The notes beneath the pieces were generated by a model. It saw only the letters and a list, made by a program, of their open reading frames with translations, was not told the origin of the DNA and searched no databases. The position numbers were made by a program, and so were the translations under genes. From an uncultured Gammaproteobacteria bacterium (lineage in GTDB: Bacteria > Pseudomonadota > Gammaproteobacteria > Steroidobacterales > Steroidobacteraceae), in NCBI GenBank assembly GCA_963736185.1, contig CAVTNZ010000011.1:4912-68911 (forward strand): a stretch of DNA of 64,000 nucleotides, given 5' to 3'. Within the stretch, counting starts at the first letter, position 1. Every line of letters starts with the position of its first letter. Below, in pieces: positions 1 to 32,009 of the stretch.

Positions 1-596
1 CTGGCCCAATGCGCCTCGATCCGTTCGGCCAGCGCCTCGACATAGCCTGGATCGGCGTAATAGTCGTTCACGAAGCGTGTTTCCGGAAGCCACCTCCAAC
101 GCCTCAATGCGTGCACGGTTCGATCGAACACCGAACCGGTGGTGGAGGAGCAATATTGCGGATAGAGCGGCACCACCAGCAGGCGCTTCACGTTCTGTTC
201 GGCCAGGGATTGAATGCCGGCGTCGATGCCGGGGTTGCCGTAGGTCATGGCGAGCGCCACGCGCACGCCATCGCCCAGCATCCCGCCCAGCCGGCTTTCG
301 ATCTTGCTCTTGAGCCGCTCGCTGTAGACGGCCAAAGGCGAGCCTTCCGGCGTCCAGATCTGCCGGTAATTGCGGGCGCTGCGAAACGGCCGCAGCGGCA
401 GCACGATGCCGTAAAGTATCGGCAGCCAGATCCAACGCGAGGTATTGATGACCCGCCGGTCGCCGAGAAATTCGCGCAGATATCTTTGCACCGCGAAATA
501 GGTCGGTGAATCGGGCGTACCCAGATTCACCAGCAGCACGCCGATCCGGTCCGGCGTCGCGGGTGCCGTCTGCAGCACGGCGCGGTAATAAGCCAT
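1..596 (-). CDS. hemH: ferrochelatase (N-terminal part; C-terminus lies beyond the left window edge)
   Basis: Not in the ORF track because it runs off the left edge. My translation of the minus strand from ATG (596-594) gives MAYYRAVLQTAPATPDRIGVLLVNLGTPDSPTYFAVQRY..., and later ...LVVPLYPQYCSSTTGSVFD.... LLVNLGTP and PLYPQY are classic ferrochelatase signatures. Confidence 0.85.
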   Translation of the reverse strand, partial: MAYYRAVLQTAPATPDRIGVLLVNLGTPDSPTYFAVQRYLREFLGDRRVINTSRWIWLPILYGIVLPLRPFRSARNYRQIWTPEGSPLAVYSERLKSKIESRLGGMLGDGVRVALAMTYGNPGIDAGIQSLAEQNVKRLLVVPLYPQYCSSTTGSVFDRTVHALRRWRWLPETRFVNDYYADPGYVEALAERIEAHWA

Positions 597-672
597 TGCA
601 CTTCCTCGTCAGAGCCCGATCACGTCCAGCGCGCCAGTATACTGCGTGCGTGATCCCTCACGCCGCCGCACC

Positions 673-1365
673 ATGTTTTGGTTGAGCCCCGACGAAAGCG
701 AGGCCCTGCGCCTGAGTTTGAGCGTCGCCGCACGAAGCCTCGCGGTGAGCGCGCCCGCAGCCCTGATCGTCGCCTGGGTCCTGACGCGCCGCCGCTTCGT
801 CGGGCATACGCTGCTCGATGTCCTGGTGCACCTGCCGCTGGTTCTGCCGCCCGTCGCCGTCGGTTATGGATTGCTGCTGTTGTTCGGCGTGCGCGGTCCC
901 ATCGGCGGCTGGCTCAAGAACACACTGGGTATTGAGCTGGTCTTCACGCGCAACGGCGCCGCGCTCGCCACCGCGGTGATGTCCTTTCCGCTGATGGTCC
1001 GGGCGATACGCATCTCCCTCGAGAGCATCGACCGCGGTCTGGAGGATGCGGCGCGGACATTGGGCGCGGGCGCCTTCGACCGCCTCGCCACCATCACCCT
1101 GCCGCTGATGCTGCCCGGACTGCTGGCCGGCGCCATCACCGCGTTTTCGGCCGCGCTGGGCGAATTCGGAGCGGTCATCACCTTCGTGTCGAATATTCCC
1201 GGCGAGACCCGCACGCTGCCGTTGGCGCTGTACTCCGCATTGCAGGAGCCCGGATCCGAACATGCCGCGGCCCGGCTTGCCGCGATTTCTGTGACACTGG
1301 GGATCGGCGGCCTGTTGATCGCGGAATGGCTTTCGCGCCGGGTGCGCCGCATGCTGGGGCGTTGA
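673..1365 (+). CDS. modB: molybdate ABC transporter permease
   Basis: ORF 646-1365, with the start placed at Met-10 (MFWLSPDESEALRLSLSVA...). Multi-TM ABC permease with the EAA-type loop LEDAARTLGAGAFDRLATITLPL. The stop TGA overlaps the modC ATG by 1 nt. Confidence 0.88.
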   Translation: MFWLSPDESEALRLSLSVAARSLAVSAPAALIVAWVLTRRRFVGHTLLDVLVHLPLVLPPVAVGYGLLLLFGVRGPIGGWLKNTLGIELVFTRNGAALATAVMSFPLMVRAIRISLESIDRGLEDAARTLGAGAFDRLATITLPLMLPGLLAGAITAFSAALGEFGAVITFVSNIPGETRTLPLALYSALQEPGSEHAAARLAAISVTLGIGGLLIAEWLSRRVRRMLGR

Positions 1366-2474
1366 TGCTCTCGGTGACCGCCATCAAGCAGCGCGAGGCG
1401 TTTCGCCTCGATGTGAGCTTCCAGTCGCCGACCCCGGGCGTGGTCGCCCTCTTCGGCCCGTCGGGATGCGGCAAGACCACCACGGTGAATCTCGTCGCAG
1501 GCCTGCTGCGGCCGGACCGGGGGCGCGTGGCGCTCGGCGACACGGTGCTATTCGACGCAGCGGCCGGCATCGATGTGCCGGCGGAGAAGCGCGGCATCGG
1601 ATACGTGTTTCAGGACGCGCGCCTGTTTCCGCACATGAACGTCGCCGCCAACCTGAAATTCGCCCAACGGCGCGCGACGCGAACCGGGACGATCGGATTC
1701 GACCGGGTCGTCGGCATGCTCGAGCTGCAGCCGCTCATGAGGCGCCGTGTGCATCAATTGTCCGGGGGCGAAAAGCAGCGGATCGCCATCGCCCGCGCGC
1801 TGCTGACGCAACCGCGACTGCTGCTGCTCGACGAGCCGCTCGCCTCGCTCGATCGCGGGCGCCGCGAGGAGGTGCTGCCCTATTTGGAGACGCTGCGGGA
1901 CGAGCTGCGTCTTCCCATGGTTTACGTCAGTCACCGATTCGACGAGGTGCTGAGACTGGCCACGCACATCGTGCTCATGCGCTCCGGAAGCGTCGCGGCG
2001 CAGGGCGAAATCGGCGCGATCAGCCTGGATCCGCGGCTGCGCGCGATGATCGATCCCGACGCGGTCGGCGCGGTGGTCGACGGCACGGTGATGGGCCGCG
2101 AACCGGACGGCGGACTGCTCCGGGTGCGCGTCGGCTCGGGGGAGCTGCACCTCGATGCCGCGGGTCCTCCCGGTACGACATTGCGGGTCCAGCTGCTGGC
2201 CCGCGACATCATCGTGGCGACGCAGAACCCGGAATTCCTCAGCGTGCGCAATCGTTTGCAGGGCGTCGTCACGGCGGTCGAGGACGACGGCGCCTCGGAT
2301 CTCATCTCGATCGACGTGGGCGGCGCCGACGCGGGCGGCGGCGCAACGATCCTGGCGAGGATCACCAAGACAGCCACCCGCGAGCTCGGGCTCGCCCCCG
2401 CAAAGCCCGTTTGGGCCCTGGTGAAATCCGTCGCTCTGCGCGGCGTTACTTCAACCGGGTTCCCACATGCATGA
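1365..2474 (+). CDS. modC: molybdate ABC transporter ATP-binding protein
   Basis: ORF 1326-2474, with the start placed at MLSVTAIK (1365). Walker A GPSGCGKTT, ABC signature LSGGEKQRIAIARAL, Walker B LLLLDEP. It also has a C-terminal TOBE/Mop-like extension typical of ModC. Confidence 0.88.
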   Translation: MLSVTAIKQREAFRLDVSFQSPTPGVVALFGPSGCGKTTTVNLVAGLLRPDRGRVALGDTVLFDAAAGIDVPAEKRGIGYVFQDARLFPHMNVAANLKFAQRRATRTGTIGFDRVVGMLELQPLMRRRVHQLSGGEKQRIAIARALLTQPRLLLLDEPLASLDRGRREEVLPYLETLRDELRLPMVYVSHRFDEVLRLATHIVLMRSGSVAAQGEIGAISLDPRLRAMIDPDAVGAVVDGTVMGREPDGGLLRVRVGSGELHLDAAGPPGTTLRVQLLARDIIVATQNPEFLSVRNRLQGVVTAVEDDGASDLISIDVGGADAGGGATILARITKTATRELGLAPAKPVWALVKSVALRGVTSTGFPHA

Positions 2475-2949
2475 TTCCGATGATGTGGTCGGACGATTCG
2501 AGTCCGAGCACGGCCTTCACGTCCGGATCGTACGCCGCCGCACCGGTCTTCCACATGACGCCGTAGCCCAGCCCGTGCGCCGCCAGAAAGAGATTTTCGG
2601 CGGCCGCGCCCGCGGCCACGACCTGTTCGATCTGCGGCACCTTCGGGTGCTCACGCACGCGGCAACCCACGACGATGAGCGTCGGCGAGCGCAGGATCTT
2701 ATCCCTGTCGGCCGCGACCTGCTCGCCGGTCAACGCGGGAGTGCGCCGGCGTTTGGCCTCCGCTGCAGCCGCGGCGAAGGGCTCCCTGGCCGCACCATGA
2801 AGCACGACCAGATGCCACGGCTTCAGGCGCCCATGGTCGGGCGCGCGCCCCGCGGCATTCAGGATCAGCTCGAGGTGGGCGTGAGTCGGCCCCGGCTCGC
2901 CCAATCGCGCGGCCGAGGACCTCGTATCCATCGCTTCGATTAAATCCAT
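2446..2949 (-). CDS. small nitroreductase-fold protein (YdjA-like)
   Basis: 167-aa ORF. The segments ...HGRLKPWHLVVL... and ...AAENLFLAAHGLGYGVMWKTG... resemble small nitroreductase-family proteins. It has a 29-nt convergent overlap with the modC 3' end. Confidence 0.75.
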   Translation of the reverse strand: MDLIEAMDTRSSAARLGEPGPTHAHLELILNAAGRAPDHGRLKPWHLVVLHGAAREPFAAAAAEAKRRRTPALTGEQVAADRDKILRSPTLIVVGCRVREHPKVPQIEQVVAAGAAAENLFLAAHGLGYGVMWKTGAAAYDPDVKAVLGLESSDHIIGIMHVGTRLK

Positions 2950-3080
2950 CTATTCCTTGTATGCGTTCAAAATTTTGGCGGGACGGGTGCGGCAATCGGC
3001 TATGATTCGCGAGACCGGCGAGCCCGCTCCGCATGGGATGTCTCGTCGGGAATTATACCCACTGTTTTCAAGGAGCCCTC

Positions 3081-3656
3081 ATGAAGCGAATCGTTTTGGC
3101 GCCGCTTGCCGCGTGCGTCTGCGCCGCGGCTTTTGCAGCGCCGGTCACCTATGTGCTCGACCCGAAGCATACCTACCCCAGTTTCGAGGCGGACCACATG
3201 GGCGGCCTTTCGGTCTGGCGCGGGAAGTTCACGGACACGACCGGCAAGGTCGTCTACGACAAGGCCGCCAAATCGGGCACGATCGATGTGACCGTGAACG
3301 TGGACTCCATCGACTTCGGCAATGCGAAACTGGATGAACACGCCAAGTCCGACGAGCTTTTCGATGCGGCCAAGTTCCCCACCGCGACCTACTCCGGAAA
3401 GTTCACCAAATTCGACGCGAAGGGTCCGACCGAGGCCCAGGGCACGTTCACGCTGCACGGCGTGAGCAGACCGTTGACCCTCAAGATCGACTCCTTCCTG
3501 TGCAAGCCGAATCCGATGACCCACAAGGAAGTCTGCGGAGCCGACGCCACGGCCTCGTTCGACCGGTCCGACTACGGTATCGATTTCGGTCAGAAGTACG
3601 GCTTCAAGATGTGGGTGAAGCTCCAGATCCAGGTCGAGGGAAGCCCCGCCGGCTAG
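3081..3656 (+). CDS. yceI: YceI-family periplasmic lipid/polyisoprenoid-binding protein
   Basis: ORF 3033-3656, with the start placed at [19 protein letters not shown] (signal peptide), 5 nt after AGGAG (3071-3075). [27 protein letters not shown] and [11 protein letters not shown] fit the YceI family. Confidence 0.85.
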
Positions 3657-3665
3657 CGCGCTTCA

Positions 3666-3692
3666 GCCGGCGCTCCCGCCAGGAGCGTCGGC
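3666..3692. terminator. candidate bidirectional hairpin terminator between convergent yceI and soxG
   Basis: Imperfect inverted repeat GCCGGCGCTCC-cgcca-GGAGCGTCGGC (one mismatch) sits between the two stop codons. No clear U-tract is present. Confidence 0.3.
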
Positions 3693-4244
3693 TCATCCCG
3701 CGAACCCGTACTCGGCGGCCGCCTCGGCGAGCGCATGCCGGAAACTGCGGGTCAGGCTGCGGAACAGGAGCACCTCGAACACGGGCGCCGAATTCGAGTC
3801 GTCCGGCAGGCGCCACACGGTCACCCCGATATGCGAGGCCACCGTGGAGGCCGCGTCCCCCACCTTGAATGCCTGCGGATGCACATCGATCGGAATCAAT
3901 TTGGCCAGCGTTTCGCGCACGCAGGCGCCCGACAGCCGGATCAACGTGTAGCCGTCGCTCTGATCCGATACCGATGCCACGCCGTCCAGCTGTTCCATGA
4001 GCCTCGCGGAGAAATCGTTGCCCTCGCCCTCGACCAGCGCCAGCCACGCGCCGGGTCCCGTGCCGGTGAACACGACGCCGGGTGCGGCCGATCGGCGGGG
4101 GCCCCGCGGCAGCTCGACGCCGAACAGCTCCCGAACCCGTTGACGCAGCGCATCCGAGGCGCCTTTCCTCGCCATGACCGCGGCGATACCGAATCCGTCG
4201 AGGATCGACGCCGTGACTCCTGGGAACATCGAGGTCTCAGACAT
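3693..4244 (-). CDS. soxG: sarcosine oxidase gamma subunit
   Basis: ORF 3693-4301, with the start placed at MSETSMFPG (4244), overlapping the soxA stop (4237-4239). Its size (~183 aa) and last position in a soxB-D-A-G order fit SoxG. Confidence 0.82.
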   Translation of the reverse strand: MSETSMFPGVTASILDGFGIAAVMARKGASDALRQRVRELFGVELPRGPRRSAAPGVVFTGTGPGAWLALVEGEGNDFSARLMEQLDGVASVSDQSDGYTLIRLSGACVRETLAKLIPIDVHPQAFKVGDAASTVASHIGVTVWRLPDDSNSAPVFEVLLFRSLTRSFRHALAEAAAEYGFAG

Positions 4245-7200
4245 GCAGGCGGGCTCCTTCCGGGTCGAAGAACAGGGGCGATACCACCTCGACCTCCGCA
4301 TCGCCGGATCGAACCGGGCAGAAGGCGCGCACGCGCTCGCCGTGGCGCTCGGGTCCGCGCTTCAGGAATCCCAATCCTATCCAGTGTCCGAGCATGGGCG
4401 AATAGGCCACCGAGGTGAGATAGCCTTCATCGTTCTCCAGGCTGGGAGTCGCGCCCGGGGCGAGGAAATGCGCGCCGCCATACAGCCGCACCGACCGGTC
4501 GACCGGCCGGATCCCGACGAGCGACGGGCGTTCGGGATCCGTGAGCCCGGGCCTTTCGGCCAGCACCCGTCCGATGAAATCCTTTTTCCTGGACATCATG
4601 CGCCCGAGCCCGAGATCGGCCGCGGTCGTGGTTCCGTTCAACTCATTGCCCGCCACATGGCCTTTCTCGATGCGCATGACACCGAGCGCCTCGGTGCCGT
4701 AAGGGGTCACACCGAGGCCCTCCCCGGCCTTCATGATCGCGCGGATCGCCGAGTCGCCATGCCGGGCGGGAACCGCAAGCTCGTAGGCCAGCTCGCCGGA
4801 GAAGGAGATGCGGAACAGCCGGGCGCGCAATTTCGCCCAGGAAAATTCCGCGCACGCGAGATACGGGAAGGCGCGGTCCGACAGATCGAACGCGTCGCCC
4901 AGCAGCCGTTGCAGGAGCTCGCGCGATTTCGGCCCTGCGACGGCGTATTGGGCCCACTGCTCGGTGACCGAGACGATCTGCACGTCGAGCTCGGGCCACA
5001 GGATCTGCCGGGCGTGTTCCAGGTGCGCCATGACGCCGGCGGCATTCGCCGTGGTCGTCGACATCACGTAGCGGTCCTTCGCGAGCTGCGCCGTGGTGCC
5101 GTCGTCCATGACGAACCCGTCCTCGCGCAGCATCAACCCGTAACGCGATTTTCCGACCGGCAGCGTCGAGAACATGTTGATGTAGACCCGGTCGAGAAAC
5201 GCGCCGGCGTCCGGCCCCTGAATATCGATCTTCCCCAGCGTCGACACATCGCACACGCCGACGCCCGAGCGCACGGAGCGCACCTCGCGCGTGACCGTCT
5301 CCTGCCAGCTCGACTCGCCGGGCGCGGTGAACCATTGGGCGCGCAGCCATTGGCCGGCCTCGACGAAGGTCGCACCCTGCTCGCGCGCCCAATCGTGCCC
5401 GGCGGTGAAGCGCGTCGGACGAAAATGCGCGCCGCGGTGCGGACCCGCGAGCGCGCCGATCGACACCGGCGTATAGGGCGGCCGCGCGGTGGTCGTGCCC
5501 ACGCTCGGAATGGAGCGTTCGGTGAGCGCGGCCATGATGGCGAGCCCGTTGACGTTCGACGTTTTTCCCTGATCGGTCGCCATCCCAAGCGTCGTATAGC
5601 GTTTCAGGTGCTCGACCGAACGGAACCCCTCGCGCTCCGCAAGCTCCACGTCCTCGCGGGTCACGTCGTGCTGCAAATCGACGAATGCCTTGCCGACGGA
5701 GTCCTCGACGAACCAGAGCGCACTCGCGCGGACCCGGTCGTCGGAGCTCTTCCAGGAGGGCATTGCTCGTGCAGCGAATCCGGTCGCGACGGCCGCCTGA
5801 ATGCCGGCCTGCGCGCCCTGCCTGAGCGAGTCGCCCAGCCCGAACGATCCGGCGCAGGCGCCCGCGGTGCCCATGCCGCGCGGCAGATCACCCGGCACGA
5901 AGGCCGAGATCTGCTGCGACCACTGCGGCTTGCTTCCGAGATGCGTCGACAGCGCCAGACTTGGGTTCCAGCCGCCGGATACGGCCAGCAGATCGACCGC
6001 GTATCGCGCGATCCGCCCGTCCGGGCCGCGCACCGAGATGCGCGACAGCCGCTGCCAACCCTCGGTGCCGACGACTTGCGAGTTCAACAGGACGTGCACG
6101 TGGCCGCGCTGCGCCGCGCCGGACGAGCGCGGGGTCCACGTCGGATCGCGAGTCGATCACCGCCTCCACGGCGACGCCCGCCTGCACCAGATCGGCGGCG
6201 GTCTTCCATCCGTCGTCGCTCGACGTGAAAATCGCGGCGCGCCGTCCGGGCGCGACCGCGAAGCGGTTGACGTAGGTGCGGACGGCGGCGGCCAGCATGA
6301 CGCCGGGCCGATCGTTGTCCCCGAACACGATGGGGCGCTCCACGGCGCCCGCCGCGAGCACGCTGCGCCGCGCGACGATTTTCCACAATCGCTGGCGCGG
6401 CCGATGGGCCGCCGGCACGGCGAGGTGGTCGCAAACGCGCTCCAGCGCGCCGTAAGTCCGCGCGCCGCTCAAGCCGCCGTCGTACGCGCCGAATACCGTG
6501 GTGCGCGGCATGACTCGAACGTTCGGCATGCAACGAAGTTCCGATTCGACCCGCCATGCCCAATCGCGTCCGCTGAGATCGTCGATGACGTGACGGTCGC
6601 CGTTCAACCGGCCGCCCAGCACGAAGTCCTCATCGCATAGAATGACCCGCGCGCCCGCGCGTCCGGCGAGCAGCGCGGCGGCGAGGCCCGCCGGACCGGC
6701 ACCGATGATCAGCACGTCGCAAAATGCGTGCGCCTTGTCGTACGTGTCGGGATCGGGCTCGCGGCTGGCGCGCCCGAGCCCCGCCGCCCTGCGGATCATG
6801 GGCTCATAGAGCTTTTCCCAGAGCGCGGCCGGCCACATGAAGGTCTTGTAGTAAAAGCCGGCCACGAAGATCGGCGACAACAGGGAATTGACCGCGCCCA
6901 GATCGAAGCCGACGCCCGGCCACGAGTTCTGGCTGCGCGCCACGAGCCCCTCGAAGAGCTCCGCGACCGTCGCACGGGTATTGGGCTCGCGCCGGGCGCC
7001 GCCGCGAAGTTCGACCAGCGCATTGGGCTCCTCGGATCCCGCGGCGATCACGCCGCGCGGGCGGTGATACTTGAAGGAGCGGCCGACCAGGTGCACGCCC
7101 GCCGCGAGCAGCGCGGACGCCAGCGTATCGCCGGCGAAACCCCGGTATCGATGCCCGTCGAACTCGAATCCGAGCGGGCGTGCGCGATCCACGACCCCAT

Positions 7201-23829: not shown

Positions 23830-24153
23830 TCAGGCCGCCGGTTCCAACACCACCGCCGTGCCGTACGCGACGATCTCACTCATGGTCTGCCCGATCTCGG
23901 CCGAATCGAACCGCATCATGACGACGGCATTGGCATGCATGAGGTTCGCGTTGCGGACCATCCGGTCGACCGCATGGCGCCGGGCCTCCTCGAGCAATTG
24001 GGTGTACTCCGTGATTTCGCCACCGACGATCGAGCGCAGCCCCGCCATGATGTTGCCGCCGAGCCCGCGGCTCCTGACAACCACGCCGAAGACCTGACCC
24101 TTGACCTCGCGTACACGATGTCCCGGCACATTTTCTGTCGTCACGACAAGCAT
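23830..24153 (-). CDS. ybjQ: YbjQ/UPF0145 family protein
   Basis: 107 aa. GNIMAGLRSIVGGEITEYTQLLEEARRHAVDRMVRNA...ANAVVMMRFD fits the YbjQ family. Confidence 0.85.
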   Translation of the reverse strand: MLVVTTENVPGHRVREVKGQVFGVVVRSRGLGGNIMAGLRSIVGGEITEYTQLLEEARRHAVDRMVRNANLMHANAVVMMRFDSAEIGQTMSEIVAYGTAVVLEPAA

Positions 24154-24485
24154 GATGGCTCCGCCAGCGTTGGAAACGAAACGGTTTTCGGAAGCCTACG
24201 GGATCCGACCGTGCCTGACGGTGCCTCAGTTCACGAAAATATCATAATTGATTGATTTTGCTGATAACTTAGGCGGGAAGCGGGTCGGGCGACCCACCAC
24301 CTGAAGGGCTAAGGAGAATGCCCGTAACCGGCCGCCCGCGGCTTGCAGCACGCTGCATGAGAATCGTGGTCCAGTCAGGATTTACAGGGGCGTGCTATGA
24401 TCCGTCGCGGCGCTTGTACTAGGGGCAGCTCTGCTGTCCGTCCTCGGAATCACTGTTTCGCCTATTAGACACCGGCGGGGTACTT

Positions 24486-24815
24486 GTGGTCGACGAGAAC
24501 TCGATTGATACCGCGGAGCGGCTAGACGCTGCGATGGCGATCCAACGGTCGATACGAATTGCAGATTTTCGCCGTCGCATTACGGATAGAAGCTATTTAT
24601 CGTACGCACTCTTGGGATTGGCGTTTCTTCTCCAGCTAGTCGCAGTTGTGGTGGACCATTTCGCGCATGCTTCGATTGCCGTCGTAACTATCTTGCCCGC
24701 GTTGATCATCGTATTAACGGCTCGCGCGTCGCGTCGTCGATATGCGCAACGTCGGCTTGACACTTATCTGCGAAGTCAACCGTCGTCCGGTCCCTTCTTT
24801 CCGCGGGTCAGATAA
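24486..24815 (+). CDS. hypothetical membrane protein
   Basis: 109-aa ORF (GTG start) with two hydrophobic helices (YALLGLAFLLQLVAVVV, IAVVTILPALIIVLTA). No family recognised. Confidence 0.4.
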   Translation: MVDENSIDTAERLDAAMAIQRSIRIADFRRRITDRSYLSYALLGLAFLLQLVAVVVDHFAHASIAVVTILPALIIVLTARASRRRYAQRRLDTYLRSQPSSGPFFPRVR

Positions 24816-25174
24816 TCAGGAGCGTCTTAGCTTCCTGTTTTTTCCTAGTTCCGGCGGTCGTTGCAGGGACAAGAAGGTGGGGTTGGCCATTACATCAGAT
24901 GCTGGTGGAAGCAGCGCTGCTGCTGCCGATTGTTGCGTATGTCCTGTTGAGGCTTTGGTTCGGCTACCGGAGCGGCGGGCATCGATAGACTCTTCCAGCA
25001 CTCCGCTCAATCACACGTTTCAAGTTACCGCTATCCTGCTGGCGGAGCTCGCAGTGCTGCGATCAACCCTATGCCGGGCACATCCGGGAACGATCGTGTT
25101 CAATCGGTGATTAAATCCTTCCCATAAATAACCGAAAACGTGCGAGTTACTCAGACGGTGGGTACGTTTCGCAG

Positions 25175-25759
25175 ATGAACCGGAAAAAAAACGACTGCTT
25201 ATCGACGCGTCTCGCTATTGCGATTTGCGGAACCCTTTTAGTCTGCTGCGGTTGCGAAAAGCGCGGACAACCGGCCCTCCAACCTTTTGTGGGGGCTCTG
25301 GGTAATGTATGGCCGCGAGCCAATTCTGATCTTGGGTTGACAATCGAGGCGCGAGATACAAGCGGGAAGATCATCTTGCATTGTGTACTAAAAAACACCT
25401 CCCTGGCCCAGGTACCGGTGGTGTTTGACGAATCCACGCTTCCGTGGAAAACGCGGGGAAAGCTAGGGATTACCGCCATCACCGCTAACGGGAAGATATT
25501 TTCTCAGCCACCGCCCTCGCCGGAAACTGCGAGCATAGGACCTCCAAGCAAGCTGGTGGCATTGAAAGTTGGTGATTCGCTGGAAGGAGATATTGATCTA
25601 TCCTCCTTAGAAATTGGGCGGTTGCCAAAAGGCGAAGACATTGCCCTTGTGTGGTCATTCTGGCTCGGAATCAAAGGTGAAGATCAAGCGCCGTACTTTT
25701 TTGGTGCGGCAGTAAATCCATTCTTTAGCGGCGTTGCCTTTTTTAAGAAGACAACGTAG
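25175..25759 (+). CDS. hypothetical secreted protein / possible lipoprotein
   Basis: 194 aa with the N-terminal signal-like segment LAIAICGTLLVCCGC (non-canonical lipobox). The rest looks beta-rich. No family recognised. Confidence 0.5.
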   Translation: MNRKKNDCLSTRLAIAICGTLLVCCGCEKRGQPALQPFVGALGNVWPRANSDLGLTIEARDTSGKIILHCVLKNTSLAQVPVVFDESTLPWKTRGKLGITAITANGKIFSQPPPSPETASIGPPSKLVALKVGDSLEGDIDLSSLEIGRLPKGEDIALVWSFWLGIKGEDQAPYFFGAAVNPFFSGVAFFKKTT

Positions 25760-25851
25760 GCACAGAACGGATGGAGAAAGGGAGAAAACATTGCGCAATG
25801 TAATTTGAACGATTGTGGTTGCACAAGAAATAAAAATAAGGGTCGTAGCCG

Positions 25852-26851
25852 TCAGTCGCGGAATGCCCTGACCTGAGCGTCCCGCCCCGGCTGCGTCCAG
25901 AATTCCGGCGTCAATCCGATCGGCGGTTCGGTTGGGATTGGCGTGGCGCGTCGCTGGAACGTGCGACGTACGGCTTCGACCAGTGCCGCCCGGTCGAAGT
26001 GTTCGGTGCGGGCCAGGTAGTCAATGTCAAAGAAATCCTTGATGCGGCTGTTGCGGATCCCCAGCGAGACAATGGCCTCGAGCTTCTCGGCGATGACGGT
26101 CTCCGGCCGATATGCGCGGATCAACGCCGCGGGATCGCCGAGGACAGCGGGGTACTCCATCTCCTCGGCCTGTGGCCAAACGGCATCGCCGAATCCAATA
26201 TCGGATCTGCAGCTGCTCGTGGATGGTGCCGAGTCGAGCACCGAACACGACCCTACTAACGCCCGAGTATTCGTCCTGGGCGCGGATTGGCTCGATAGCG
26301 ATGCTCGATGAATCGAACCTGATCCCATCATCATCAACGTCGGTGTTACAAATGCTGGCGATGTCGCGGCGCACGGATTCCGTGTCGCTGCTGCCATATG
26401 CGAGCAGATCGAGGTCGAGCTTCGACCGATAGGGCTGATCCGCCCACAGCCGCAGAAGCATCGCTCCCTTGAGCACGAATCGCTCGCGCACCGGTGAACG
26501 CCCGAGGCGATAGAGAAAGCGCTCGAAGAAGTAGTTTCGAAGCGTGATTTGGAAGTCCTCGCCGCGTTGGCGCGCGAGGTTGAGCAGGCGCGCTCGGACG
26601 GAAGCCGCGCGATCTCGTGTTCCCTTACTCTTCAACCCGCCGCTTCCAGGTAGGGTCGCATCACGTTCGAGACCCCGGCAAACCTTCGCGAAACGCCACA
26701 GCGCGTCGGCGCCGCGCGGATGCTGCTTGAGGTAATCCTTCAGCGCTTCCCTTAGGGCCTGAAGAGATTTGGATTTCCCTGAACATCTCTGGACGCGCCC
26801 GGATCGAAGGTGCGCGAATATTGATTCGCGAACTTGGCGCCGAATCGTCAA
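25852..26851 (-). pseudogene. AbiEii/AbiGii-type nucleotidyltransferase toxin gene, frameshifted (near 26200-26206)
   Basis: ORF 26027-26851 contains ASVRARLLNLARQRGEDFQITLRNYFFERFLYRLGRSPVRERFVLKGAMLLRLW and ...DEYSGVSRVVFGARLGTIHEQLQI. ORF 25852-26397 continues in another frame with (D)IGFGDAVWPQ...VIAEKLEAIV...IKDFFDIDYL. One extra base in ...CAGATC-C-GATATTGGATTC... explains the shift. The first ~80 codons are not AbiEii-like. Confidence 0.72.
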
Positions 26852-29819: not shown

Positions 29820-30395
29820 TCACGACAGATCTCGACCCCTTTTGCTGCCGCGGTCCAACAGGCGCGTGATCCCGCCGCCCAATTTAATGAGTGTCGTGAT
29901 TGTCGACCGGGGTAAGGCAATCATCTGGTCATACCAACGGCTGAGGCGTTCGACGAAATCCAGCATCTCTCTTAGGCGAAGCTGCACGGCTGGGTCCACG
30001 CTATCGTCGTCTCGTGTCATTTCGACGCACTCCCGGAGTGCCGCCGTGGCGGGGTCTAGTTCCCGGGCTTTCCGCCCTGCGGCGATCCGCGACACCAGGT
30101 TCCAAAGATCTGTTTCGGCAGTGTAGAAAGTTCGTCGATCACCCAGAATTGGGACTGATCGAATGATGTTCCATGACTGTAACTCACGAAGCGAATTGGA
30201 TACATTGGACCGCGCGATCCCCAGTAAATCCGCAATCTCCTCGGCCGCCAGCGGCTTCTTCGATGCATACAACAACGCATGAATCTGGCTTACGGAGCGG
30301 TTTACTCCCCAGCGCTCCCCTAAGTTTCCCCACTCCAAAACGAATCGTCTGACGGCTTCCGGTAAGATATCGTTTGTGTCTGTAGTTTCTGTCAT
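29820..30395 (-). CDS. GbsR/MarR-family transcriptional regulator
   Basis: 191 aa. FVLEWGNLGERWGVNRSVSQIHALLYASKKPLAAEEIADLLGIARSNVSNSLRELQSWNIIRSVPILGDRRTFY matches the GbsR-type winged-helix pattern. Confidence 0.8.
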   Translation of the reverse strand: MTETTDTNDILPEAVRRFVLEWGNLGERWGVNRSVSQIHALLYASKKPLAAEEIADLLGIARSNVSNSLRELQSWNIIRSVPILGDRRTFYTAETDLWNLVSRIAAGRKARELDPATAALRECVEMTRDDDSVDPAVQLRLREMLDFVERLSRWYDQMIALPRSTITTLIKLGGGITRLLDRGSKRGRDLS

Positions 30396-30411
30396 AACAG
30401 AAATTACAGAC
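30378..30411. promoter_or_regulatory. candidate operator: inverted repeat GTCTGTAGTTTCTGT-cata-ACAGAAATTACAGAC centred on the GbsR-family start codon
   Basis: Read directly. The arms match at 14 of 15 positions, and the spacer contains the ATG (30395-30393) of the regulator. Confidence 0.35.
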
Positions 30412-30551
30412 TAAACAACACCTGTTGTCAAGTTAGTTCGAGGATTTACGTCGCTCACAATCCCACTTTTCGGGGACCCTTATCGGCCAGGACGCGTAAG
30501 CGACGTTTGCCGCTGTTTCTTCAAGTCGCTTGGCGCACTAGTTCTTTTAAG

Positions 30552-30587
30552 ATATAAACATTTATATAAAGCTAGACACAAATGTCT
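30552..30587. promoter_or_regulatory. two small palindromes upstream of the NTase-like/HTH pair (ATATAAACATTTATAT and AGACACAAATGTCT)
   Basis: Read directly at 30552-30567 and 30574-30587, in an AT-rich stretch 14-49 nt before the ATG at 30601. The stretch contains TATATA/TATAAA -10-like hexamers. Confidence 0.3.
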
Positions 30588-30600
30588 TATACTTCCCGTC

Positions 30601-31164
30601 ATGTCGAATCTCCCGGCTTTCGATTCACTGGGACTGTTGCCGCCTGGCGATTACGAACTCACGTTCGAGGAGTTACGCCGCTCATTTCTAGTTGTCGGGC
30701 CCGGCAACGCTGATAGCACATGGGACGCCACCTGGCGTGAGTCGCTCGACGGCAATCTCGAAGTAATGACCCGGCAGTTGTGGCAGGTCGGCATTCGCGA
30801 GGTCTTTGCCGATGGTTCCTTCGTGGAAGAGAAAGATCATCCCAATGACATCGACGGATATTTCGCTTGCAGCTTAGCGGATTTGTCGAGCGGCGAACTC
30901 ACTCGAAAATTGAATCTGCTCGATCCGTATAAAATTTGGACCTGGGATCCGCGGTCCAGACAGGCCTTTCGCGGGTATCCCAAGAAGCAACTTCCCATGT
31001 GGCACCGCTATCGCGTCGAGCTATATCCGCATGTGGCAGGATTTTCGAGCGGCATCCGCGATCCGCAGGGGCACGAGCTAGAGTTTCCATCGGCCTTTCG
31101 TCAGTCGCGCCGCGATGGCAGACCACGCGGCATTATCAAATTGAAATTCGGAGGACTGCCATGA
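30601..31164 (+). CDS. minimal pol-beta-fold nucleotidyltransferase-like protein (uncharacterised family)
   Basis: 187 aa. VFADGSFVEEKDHPNDIDGYF fits hG[GS]-x9-Dh[DE]h, and the N-terminus reads LLPPGDYELTFEEL. The stop overlaps the next ATG (ATGA at 31161-31164). No obvious SD precedes 30601. Confidence 0.6.
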   Translation: MSNLPAFDSLGLLPPGDYELTFEELRRSFLVVGPGNADSTWDATWRESLDGNLEVMTRQLWQVGIREVFADGSFVEEKDHPNDIDGYFACSLADLSSGELTRKLNLLDPYKIWTWDPRSRQAFRGYPKKQLPMWHRYRVELYPHVAGFSSGIRDPQGHELEFPSAFRQSRRDGRPRGIIKLKFGGLP

Positions 31165-31616
31165 TCCGTAACGAAGCCGAATACCAGGAAGCCTCAAAGA
31201 GATTGGGCGACGAGCTAAAGCGGCTCGGCGAGCATCGTGCGCGGCTCAAAGAAGCGGGTCTTGGGGACGTTGAGATCAAACGCGTCATCGATCCACTCGA
31301 ATCCTTTCACCTGCAGTTAAAGGAAGAAGTTGAGGCCTACGAACGATTGAAGCGTGGAGAATTCGAAGAGCTCGATAACCTTCGAGGCGTTGGCCACTTA
31401 CTCATTACCTCGCGCATTGCGCAAGGCATTTCCCAGCGTGAGCTCGCGCGACGTCTGGGTGTGCACGAAACACAAGTCTCTCGCGATGAGCGAAACGAGT
31501 ATTTCGGCATCACGCTCGAACGTGCAGCCAAGATTTTAGACGCGCTCAACGTGCGGCTGCGGACCCAGGTGGCGATCGAACCACTGCCGCCCTCCCCCGT
31601 CGCGCAAGCGTCATGA
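31161..31616 (+). CDS. XRE-family HTH protein with an N-terminal coiled-coil (antitoxin-like)
   Basis: Within ORF 30936-31616, with the start placed at MIRNEAEYQEASKRL (ATG 31161). The HTH is GISQRELARRLGVHETQVSRDERNEYFGITLERAAKILDAL. Confidence 0.78.
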   Translation: MIRNEAEYQEASKRLGDELKRLGEHRARLKEAGLGDVEIKRVIDPLESFHLQLKEEVEAYERLKRGEFEELDNLRGVGHLLITSRIAQGISQRELARRLGVHETQVSRDERNEYFGITLERAAKILDALNVRLRTQVAIEPLPPSPVAQAS

Positions 31617-31657
31617 CGACCAGTTCAAGTCGTCAGTTAGCATCAGGTGATCGGACT

Positions 31658-31689
31658 TGGTGGCGCGAGCCGGACTCGAACCCACGGCC
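31658..31689 (-). other. tRNA 3'-end-like fragment with encoded CCA (T-arm + acceptor strand), not a complete tRNA
   Basis: The minus strand reads GGCCGTGGGTTCGAGTCCGGCTCGCGCCACCA: a TTCGAGT T-loop, an imperfect T-stem (one mismatch), a 7-nt acceptor strand, discriminator A, then CCA. No D-arm or anticodon arm is recognisable further 5'. Confidence 0.4.
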
Positions 31690-31936
31690 ATTTTTGGCCC
31701 TAGCGAAGCCATTCCGACAGCTATTTTCGCGGTATATTCCGACCACTTTGGGGCCCTGGCTTTTGGAGTTTTTCAAAAGGCCCCAACACAGGCCCCAAAA
31801 AGCGTCCGGCTGTACGCGAATGACCTCGGACGTCAGTGGACGATGAAACGCTACTTTTCTATTAGTTTTCCCGGAGTTACCTGTTTTTCTTCAGGTATCC
31901 CGGACGTTTGTGGACGTCCCCGGAAGTCTGCGGAAG

Positions 31937-32009
31937 TGGGACGGCTGGGACTCGAACCCAGGACCAAAGCCTTAAAAGGGCCTTGCTCTACCAACTGAGC
32001 TACCGTCCC
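31937..32009 (-). tRNA. tRNA-Lys (anticodon UUU)
   Basis: The minus strand reads GGGACGGTAGCTCAGTTGGTAGAGCAAGGCCCTTTTAAGGCTTTGGTCCTGGGTTCGAGTCCCAGCCGTCCCA. It folds as a 73-nt cloverleaf: acceptor 7 bp, D-stem GCTC/GAGC, anticodon stem AGGCC/GGCTT with loop CTTTTAA, and T-stem CTGGG/CCCAG. CCA is not encoded. Confidence 0.92.

Follow-up and report, generated by a model that had tools for sequence, protein, structure and literature searches.

What do two small, overlapping genes in the genome of an uncultured member of the Steroidobacteraceae encode, and do they form a toxin–antitoxin module? The genes lie in the window analysed here, a stretch of 64,000 nucleotides (positions 4,912–68,911 of contig CAVTNZ010000011.1, assembly GCA_963736185.1), and an earlier note on this DNA had read them as a candidate toxin–antitoxin or abortive-infection-like pair made up of a nucleotidyltransferase (NTase)-like protein and a helix–turn–helix (HTH) protein of the XRE type. 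We refer to them as gene A (window positions 30601–31164) and gene B (31161–31616), to their products as protein A and protein B, and to related loci by L-numbers. By comparison with its relatives, the window copy is an intact, stand-alone copy of a widespread, horizontally spread module. That the pair acts as an autoregulated, mobile toxin–antitoxin- or abortive-infection-like switch is a tentative reading, drawn by analogy with known systems, and is weighed below against other explanations.

Protein A is a DUF6932 protein with an NTase motif

Genes A and B, both on the plus strand, encode proteins of 187 and 151 residues (the latter beginning MIRNEAEYQE), and the start of gene B overlaps the stop of gene A by ATGA, exactly as the earlier note had described. 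Protein A matches the Pfam family DUF6932 (PF22014) with an expectation value (E) of 3.9e-28 and a score of 99.1 bits, the cut-off being 27. The match covers residues 5–181 of the protein and positions 1–141 of the 142 in the model. DUF6932 was alone among Pfam families at E values up to 1, AbiEii/DUF1814 not being matched, and the NCBIfam models gave no match. In a PADLOC scan, the sole model matched was that of PDC-M63A, weakly (E = 2e-08) and in the N-terminal half of the protein (residues 12–96). Searches of the PDB sequences with protein A and with a profile of its family revealed no relative.

The NTase core motif and the N-terminal segment preceding it, on which the earlier note had based its assignment, are both present. 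Residues 12–25 of protein A are LLPPGDYELTFEEL and residues 68–88 are VFADGSFVEEKDHPNDIDGYF; in the latter segment (V68–F88, encoded by 30802–30864), G72-S73 is followed after nine residues by D83-I-D85. This arrangement conforms to the pol-beta pattern hG[GS]-x9-13-Dh[DE]h, and E140, encoded by 31018–31020 and situated in the strand 139–144, supplies the third carboxylate expected from a later strand. G72-S73, D83 and D85 show no variation among close relatives of protein A. When the alignments are extended to a second, short subfamily (see below), relative to which protein A has an insertion of about 40 residues, G72 and S73 are still invariant, and D83, D85 and an acidic residue at position 140 (Glu, sometimes Asp) are found in at least 90% of the sequences. 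The predicted catalytic set is, in other words, conserved family-wide.

AlphaFold2 models of protein A have a predicted local distance difference test score of 76, or of 85.7 with a deeper alignment. The latter model places D83/D85 (strand 84–89) and E140 (strand 139–144) on neighbouring strands, after a long helix (43–62) and the Gly-Ser turn. The comparison of such a model with known structures, proposed in the earlier note, gave no significant match, although the weak ones are mostly to NTases. Foldseek searches of the PDB with two models returned best E values of 0.04 and 0.14, template modelling scores of at most 0.45 and nothing below E = 0.001, and a search of BFVD with the model gave no significant match. 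The weak Foldseek matches include 2rff, 1no5, MNT/MntA, AadA, AAD(9), CCA-adding enzymes, CdnE and pol beta. We describe protein A as NTase-like because the motif is present and the Foldseek matches are weak and non-significant; an NTase fold is weakly indicated, mostly by the motif. From G72-S73, D83xD85 and E140, it appears reasonably probable that protein A is a catalytically competent, minimal pol-beta-type NTase.

Protein B combines an XRE HTH with a signature N-terminal domain

The canonical XRE HTH recognised earlier in protein B is borne out by a match of residues 85–134 (31413–31562) to the Pfam family HTH_3 (E = 2.3e-10). The Pfam scan of protein B returned HTH families only, with no Peptidase_M78, and the nearest solved HTH domains are those of HipB and of restriction–modification controller proteins. 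The HTH is preceded by an N-terminal helical domain of about 75 residues (31161–31385), whose coiled-coil-type matches are weak and for which the PDB search found no solved relative. A search with the N-terminal 80 residues retrieved fragments of B only, and no new architectures. The PADLOC model RmrA matched the window protein at E = 0.02 over the HTH only, and the PDC-M63B model did not match it.

The motifs MIxNExxY and EYE occur in the N-terminal domain of every DUF6932 partner in both subfamilies, with Y60 invariant and Y8 present in at least 90% of the aligned rows. In sequence terms, this domain is a signature of the DUF6932 partner. Because the two motifs and the two tyrosines are kept in these partners, the domain is likely to be a contact or a substrate for protein A.

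The pair is conserved and has spread horizontally

The earlier note had suggested that homologues be surveyed for a consistently overlapping HTH gene and for enrichment in islands. A scan of one genome per species yielded 485 loci, of which the best 80 were examined, all relatives coming from metagenome-assembled genomes. The pairing is strict: each of the 80 loci has a homologue of B immediately downstream of A, and in all 77 loci with a readable B start this start is an ATGA or GTGA placed on the A stop. A third gene conserved in all examined loci was looked for and none was found. The open reading frame (ORF) at 31613–31846, whose ATGA lies on the B stop, was considered for this role and rejected, because in L001 it ends after 9 codons.

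At 90% identity, homologues of protein A fall into more than 3,681 clusters; at 50% identity, 634 are within the reach of phmmer. At least six phyla are represented among the 80 loci, whose assemblies belong to Gammaproteobacteria, Acidobacteriota, Planctomycetota, Nitrospirota, Myxococcota, Eremiobacterota-like bacteria and Alphaproteobacteria. Despite this breadth of hosts, the loci are 65–92% identical, which argues for horizontal spread. The pair is found in conjugative elements, plasmids and defence islands and beside integrases. No relative of A was present among the INPHARED phages and only 3 were present in IMG/VR; A is therefore not a typical phage gene.

Measured against L001, the closest locus, A has a ratio of nonsynonymous to synonymous substitution rates (dN/dS) of 0.10 and B one of 0.016, values which indicate that both genes are under purifying selection. 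On the strength of the DUF6932 match, the clusters of homologues and the low dN/dS, A and B are real genes and not chance ORFs. L085, an independent assembly, contains an identical A, preceded by the same genes as in the window and followed by the beginning of B. Genuinely altered copies were seen only in L001 and L002, where the 5′ end of A and the promoter have been replaced or lost and B is intact. Beside an intact A, B appears disrupted in L006 and L058 by frameshifts in long-read (nanopore-type) metagenome assemblies, probably sequencing errors, and its apparent disruption in L042 is a run of N; for these reasons none of the three is counted against toxicity of A.

A conserved, probable operator overlaps the promoter in most relatives

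Two palindromes upstream of gene A, at 30552–30567 and 30574–30587, had been taken in the earlier note as signs of an autoregulated operon. Both are present, and each is too short for significance alone. Among the relatives, a conserved operator overlaps the promoter in most cases: in 65 of 78 loci, a palindrome TTGACA-N4-TGTCAA with at most two mismatches is found 25–63 nt before the start of A, lying over the −35 box. The family consensus operator, written out, is CTTGACATATATGTCAAG, and a TAAAAT-like −10 box follows 17 nt after its first hexamer. Only 0.6% of shuffled upstream regions reached the same palindrome match, and of the 56 near-consensus sites counted over 703 kb of DNA from the loci, 54 are situated no more than 110 nt upstream of gene A.

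In the window, the place of the family operator and −35 box is occupied by the inverted repeat ATATAAA-CA-TTTATAT (30552–30567). Read in register with the operator, 30555–30570 is TAAACA-TTTA-TATAAA, which differs from the consensus by four changes, all from G/C to A/T. The best match to the family palindrome in the window is the operator-like sequence TAGACA-CAAA-TGTCTT at 30573–30588, with three mismatches and a GACA-N4-TGTC core; the inner repeat AGACA-CAAA-TGTCT (30574–30587) is contained within it. This palindrome covers the likely −10 region, 28 nt ahead of the ATG, and its core is 20 nt downstream of the canonical register. The TAGACA half-site recurs in L045, L048, L094 and L095.

A different palindrome, ACACAAC-N4-8-GTTGTGT, is found in the short subfamily, where it closely precedes the start codon and is sometimes present in two copies. 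Such subfamily-specific promoter palindromes are what an autoregulating repressor predicts. The pair displays, in silico, the DNA-binding partner with an operator in its own promoter that one expects from type II toxin–antitoxin modules, the window site being a variant.

A short subfamily of DUF6932 proteins has related partners

The short subfamily has more than 900 members of about 146 residues, which are 24–34% identical to protein A and match PDC-M63A better than protein A does (1.8e-16). In 8 of 9 sampled members, an HTH partner overlaps or directly abuts the gene for the DUF6932 protein. A five-gene operon was also found, in which the gene for DUF6932 is followed by an overlapping gene for an HTH protein (about 487 residues) and by genes for DUF4186, a radical-SAM-like protein and an unknown protein of about 423 residues. 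It is carried by plasmids of Rhizobium and Nostoc and by four long contigs of chromosomal DNA (L081, L082, L096, L097, L099 and L100). The long partners scanned, those of L081 and L082, consist of an HTH followed by an M78 (ImmA/IrrE) peptidase domain. The PADLOC model RmrA, the RosmerTA antitoxin, matched the L082 partner over both domains (1.7e-11) and the L081 partner over the HTH only (2.4e-08). The short HTH partners in L084 and L098 resemble protein B of the window.

In L091, the Mycobacterium abscessus prophage prophiGD21-3, three overlapping genes beside the integrase (1338–3882) encode a 386-residue “immunity repressor”, a 170-residue “nucleotidyltransferase” and an unknown protein of 292 residues. 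The 170-residue protein weakly matches the N-terminal half of short DUF6932 (E = 2e-3), is differently arranged, and was not used as evidence. This trio is possibly one more relative of the module, in rearranged form.

Some relatives lie beside conjugation genes and cyclic-nucleotide defence operons

The nearest large ORF on each side of the pair was typed in 74 and 73 loci, from a crude ORF call that makes the counts approximate. Eight loci have a TrwC relaxase upstream, and 4–6 have a DUF6094 methyltransferase downstream. Other neighbours associated with mobility or conflict are ParD, AIPR, TOTE primase, resolvase, RepA, DDE transposase and Fic. L088 has a type IV secretion system coupling protein with DUF3363/DUF932/SSB, and L089 an integrase and AbiEi.

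In 16 of the 80 loci, a cyclic-nucleotide defence operon is situated immediately upstream on the opposite strand, in at least four architectures. TRIP13–HORMA–HORMA–cyclase–NucC, a type III cyclic oligonucleotide-based antiphage signalling system (CBASS), occurs in L018, L026, L043 and L052, with PADLOC E values to 1e-127. The order cyclase–HORMA–TRIP13–TIR–SAVED is found in L025, L036, L039, L056 and L067, and another SMODS cyclase in L068 and L076. PycC (5e-216)–E1–JAB together with an effector combining TIR and cyclic nucleotide monophosphate (cNMP)-binding domains occurs in L027, L028, L058, L063 and L078, and the same PycC arrangement is present in L086, an independently fetched contig. 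The intergenic region between the pair and these operons is 37–383 nt long and holds the palindrome. On the other side, an effector of the pyrimidine cyclase system for antiphage resistance (Pycsar), PycTM, directly follows B in 6 of the 80 loci and in L086, and overlaps the B stop in L028 and L053. On a neighbour-joining tree of A+B, calculated without support values, the loci adjacent to CBASS or Pycsar operons are dispersed.

A seven-gene cassette can be recognised in L027, L028, L058, L063, L078 and L086 (approximately 1–6600 in each locus), with the TIR–cNMP-binding effector, JAB, a ThiF-type E1 and PycC on one arm and DUF6932, the HTH protein and PycTM on the other. It brings together a Pycsar-like cyclase, a CBASS type II-like E1/JAB and two effectors.

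Proposed mechanism and alternatives

We propose that protein B is very probably a dimeric XRE repressor which binds the palindrome over its own promoter, a view for which the comparison of relatives argues strongly; in the window copy, its site would be the GACA-N4-TGTC variant at 30573–30588. Proteins A and B, which appear functionally inseparable, would be made together by virtue of the ATGA translational coupling and, on balance, are expected to interact through the N-terminal domain of B, by which B would restrain A, because this is, besides the HTH, the sole part conserved wherever a DUF6932 gene precedes. Protein A is, with slightly more assurance, taken to be an active NTase. Following phage infection or stress, B would be lost, cleaved or titrated, whereupon the operon would be de-repressed and A freed. 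Free A might then nucleotidylate the 3′ end of tRNA, or a protein, so that growth stops; this step is conjectural and is modelled on MenT/AbiEii and MntA. MenT modifies tRNA acceptor ends, and MntA acts by AMPylating its partner protein. In relatives, the promoter region under the control of B would in addition abut CBASS or Pycsar operons or drive downstream cargo.

A toxin–antitoxin function is supported by the pairing, the operator, the catalytic residues, the mobile contexts, the selection on both genes and the loss of the 5′ end of A, with B kept intact, in L001 and L002. It is supported also by analogies with AbiEii/MenT, with the layout of HigBA/MqsRA, with the RosmerTA-like long partners and with the Xre–COG2856 associations described by Makarova et al. 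(PMC2701414). The small, co-directional and coupled genes and their patchy, horizontal distribution are those of type II toxin–antitoxin systems. Several observations weigh against this function. A is retained in all loci with CBASS or Pycsar effectors, at the position of a regulator, which fits a sensor better than a toxin. DUF6932 is also the C-terminal domain of the GT2 glycosyltransferase proteins P0128 (865 residues) and P0161 (803 residues), both of which have tetratricopeptide repeats as well, and P0164 (435 residues); these fusions are not toxin-like and suggest a role for DUF6932 beyond two-gene conflict modules. Deletion of the remote relative PDC-M63AB from Escherichia coli NILS69 had no detectable effect on phage infectivity (10.1101/2024.12.20.629700), and the term DUF6932 appears in no paper of the literature searched. 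To these may be added the lack of significance of the structural matches of A to the PDB, the failure of a scan for sigma-70-like promoters to find a site upstream of gene A, and the absence of a Shine–Dalgarno sequence before 30601, which the earlier note had pointed out and which is confirmed here.

The retention of A beside CBASS and Pycsar effectors would be accounted for if A and B were instead a two-protein transcriptional switch for neighbouring immune operons, in which A, as a signal-responsive enzyme, removes the repressor B from DNA, for example by nucleotidylating its Y8 or Y60. Stand-alone copies would then be orphans or act in trans. We regard this as the main rival, somewhat less likely than the switch proposed above, and note in its favour that the pair is upstream of, and divergent from, complete defence operons in 16 of 80 loci, that PycTM directly follows B in 6 of them and in L086, and that these associations are scattered over the A+B tree. 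The position and orientation are those of CapH+CapP (10.1101/2022.04.27.489752), and the logic would be that of CapK+CapS (PMC13373217). The A and B genes of the short subfamily are the first two of a five-gene operon, B there being a CapH–CapP-like fusion of HTH and peptidase, and the tyrosines Y8 and Y60 of B are kept in both subfamilies. Most loci, however, including that in the window, have no recognisable immune operon adjacent to them, and the stand-alone majority is left unexplained. The typing covered the nearest large ORF per side in the best 80 of the 485 loci, the tree carries no support values, and co-location in defence islands is also typical of toxin–antitoxin modules. Moreover, no transcription factor modified by an NTase in such a way is known, and an NTase–HTH regulator of immune operons is described in no paper of the literature searched. 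That DUF6932 and XRE proteins make up a new class of switch, with A nucleotidylating B at Y8/Y60 on a phage or DNA-damage cue and so de-repressing CBASS, Pycsar or other cargo, is a bolder proposal to which we give little credence; under it, the window copy would be an orphan or a toxin–antitoxin-like derivative.

A function in resistance, with A as an NTase of small molecules (antibiotics or xenobiotics) under the control of the XRE repressor B in a mobile resistance or stress cassette, is in our judgement very improbable. The hosts are soil and peat bacteria, several of the weak structural matches are to AadA, AAD(9) and ANT(4′), the same alternative was raised for MNT modules by Makarova et al. 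in 2009 (PMC2701414), and the Xre-MNT pair of Streptococcus suis affects streptomycin resistance (PMC8406773). Protein A nevertheless lacks the C-terminal, substrate-binding helical domain of the aminoglycoside nucleotidyltransferase (ANT) enzymes, and what surrounds the pair is relaxase genes and defence operons rather than genes for resistance; a simple transcriptional control would need neither the strict 4-nt coupling nor a partner with a dedicated, co-conserved N-terminal domain. It is also improbable, though not to quite the same degree, that the family is functional and the window copy transcriptionally silent or decaying. The canonical operator and −35 box have been degraded to TAAACA-TTTA-TATAAA, neither a sigma-70-like site nor a Shine–Dalgarno sequence is seen, and the closest relatives, L001 and L002, lack the 5′ end of A. 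Against this, both ORFs are undamaged, with all invariant residues in place, the dN/dS values are low, and A is identical in the independent assembly L085. The GACA-N4-TGTC site and an A/T-rich region remain, and a short or absent leader could dispense with a Shine–Dalgarno sequence.

Whether or not the toxin–antitoxin-like switch proposed above is correct, the module is distinguished by an obligatory, co-evolving repressor partner, subfamily-specific operators, mobility and recurrence in the place of a regulator beside type III CBASS and Pycsar operons. If A is a toxin, it would provide a new family of NTase effectors for toxin–antitoxin and abortive-infection biology. If A modifies B, this would be a new way to switch immune operons on, nucleotidylation taking its place as a fourth logic beside ligand binding by CapW/BrxR, proteolysis in CapH+CapP and phosphorylation in CapK+CapS. 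Either way, the pair is missed by current annotation libraries for defence and toxin–antitoxin systems and should be added to them. DUF6932 is a large family, its A subfamily being present in 485 species-level genomes, and is now a concrete experimental target.

Surroundings of the pair in the window

The G+C content of the window is 0.52–0.56 at 30000–32000, as against 0.60–0.69 on both sides. Upstream of the pair and divergent from it are a MarR-like gene (29820–30395, minus strand), a methyltransferase gene, a DCC1-like gene and a saccharopine dehydrogenase/DUF4166 gene, in an arrangement shared with L085. Just upstream of the MarR-like gene is the inverted repeat ACTAAACAACA / TGTTGTCAAGT (30410–30433), which is probably the operator of the MarR-like regulator itself.

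The earlier note had placed the pair on a low-G+C island close to a decayed AbiEii gene and to a tRNA gene. The low G+C, the decay of AbiEii and the proximity of the tRNA gene are all as described: an AbiEii (PF08843) pseudogene at 25855–26851 on the minus strand matches model positions 1–99 and 99–199 in two frames, and tRNA-Lys(UUU) lies at 31936–32009 on the minus strand, about 320 nt after B. The island is, however, not a single one. The pseudogene, which is without an AbiEi partner, belongs to a low-G+C patch at 24000–26500, and between it and the pair lie about 3.4 kb of genes with a higher G+C (approximately 0.60–0.68). These intervening genes rule out one contiguous island; the pair occupies its own patch of about 2 kb, in which the MarR-like gene partly lies.

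A blastn alignment of the window with L001, 90.7% identical overall, runs to 31875 and stops about 60 nt before tRNA-Lys, defining a conserved non-coding stretch (31617–31875) that travels with the module. At 31658–31715, on the minus strand, there is a 3′ fragment resembling tRNA or transfer-messenger RNA (tmRNA), with T-arm, acceptor and CCA, which matches the 3′ end of tmRNA in Rfam at E = 0.037. L001 has no tRNA gene nearby. The stretch with this fragment is probably a relic attachment site carried along with the module. In L001, the module is flanked by GGCCC-N-GGCCCC motifs (4930–4965 and 6125–6150), exactly where the 5′ end of A has been replaced, and a similar motif lies downstream of B in the window (31770–31805). 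These motifs may be the ends of a small mobile or recombination element.

Comparison with known systems

As the earlier note had supposed, no named, characterised system matches the pair in the comparisons made here, protein A being a DUF6932 protein and a remote relative only of the PADLOC candidate PDC-M63A. AbiE and MenAT resemble the pair in joining a pol-beta-type NTase to a DNA-binding, autoregulating partner and in being mobile, and they are linked to abortive infection. They differ from it in that their enzyme has an AbiEii/DUF1814 domain, is encoded second and is about 300 residues long, compared with the 187 residues of A. The AbiE partner, AbiEi, consists of a winged helix and a C-terminal domain, whereas B consists of an XRE HTH and an N-terminal helical domain. 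The combination of AbiEii/DUF1814 with an upstream AbiEi/MenA is thus not found in the pair. The HEPN-MNT modules contain a minimal NTase that is similar in size to A and has the G-S...DxD signature, and MNT/MntA is among the weak fold matches. In those modules, however, the NTase is the antitoxin and its partner a HEPN RNase; no sequence or structure match to A was significant, and no HEPN partner turned up in the ORFs next to the pair.

In HigBA and MqsRA, the toxin gene comes first, the antitoxin has an N-terminal part that binds its partner and a C-terminal HTH, and autoregulation takes place through promoter palindromes. The pair has this order of an upstream gene and a partner with a C-terminal HTH, and the promoter palindromes, but A is not an RNase of the RelE/MqsR type and the HTH of B is nearest to those of HipB and restriction–modification controllers. 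PDC-M63 differs from the pair in that the match is limited to the N-terminal half of A and in that no PDC-M63B-like partner is present. A published, autoregulated pair of XRE and NTase genes is the Xre-MNT of S. suis, in which the XRE gene precedes the NTase gene and toxicity was observed only when export to the periplasm was forced (PMC8406773).

RosmerTA is like the short subfamily, in which a partner with HTH and M78 domains follows a gene in the place of RmrT, and a toxin-first order is common in the RosmerTA family (PMC10440598). Its HTH–M78 combination is present in the L081 and L082 partners but not in B of the window, which has no peptidase and has an extra N-terminal domain, and A matches no RmrT model. 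In CapH+CapP, CapP cleaves CapH, and the two genes lie upstream of immune operons and divergent from them (10.1101/2022.04.27.489752); in CapK+CapS, CapK phosphorylates CapS (PMC13373217). The enzymes of these systems are a peptidase and a kinase, whereas that of the pair is NTase-like and is encoded first, by an overlapping gene; no peptidase accompanies the pair in the window, and the gene divergent from it is the MarR-like one, with metabolic genes beyond. What the pair has in common with them is an enzyme joined to a repressor, a palindromic operator and, in 16 of the 80 relatives, the same position.

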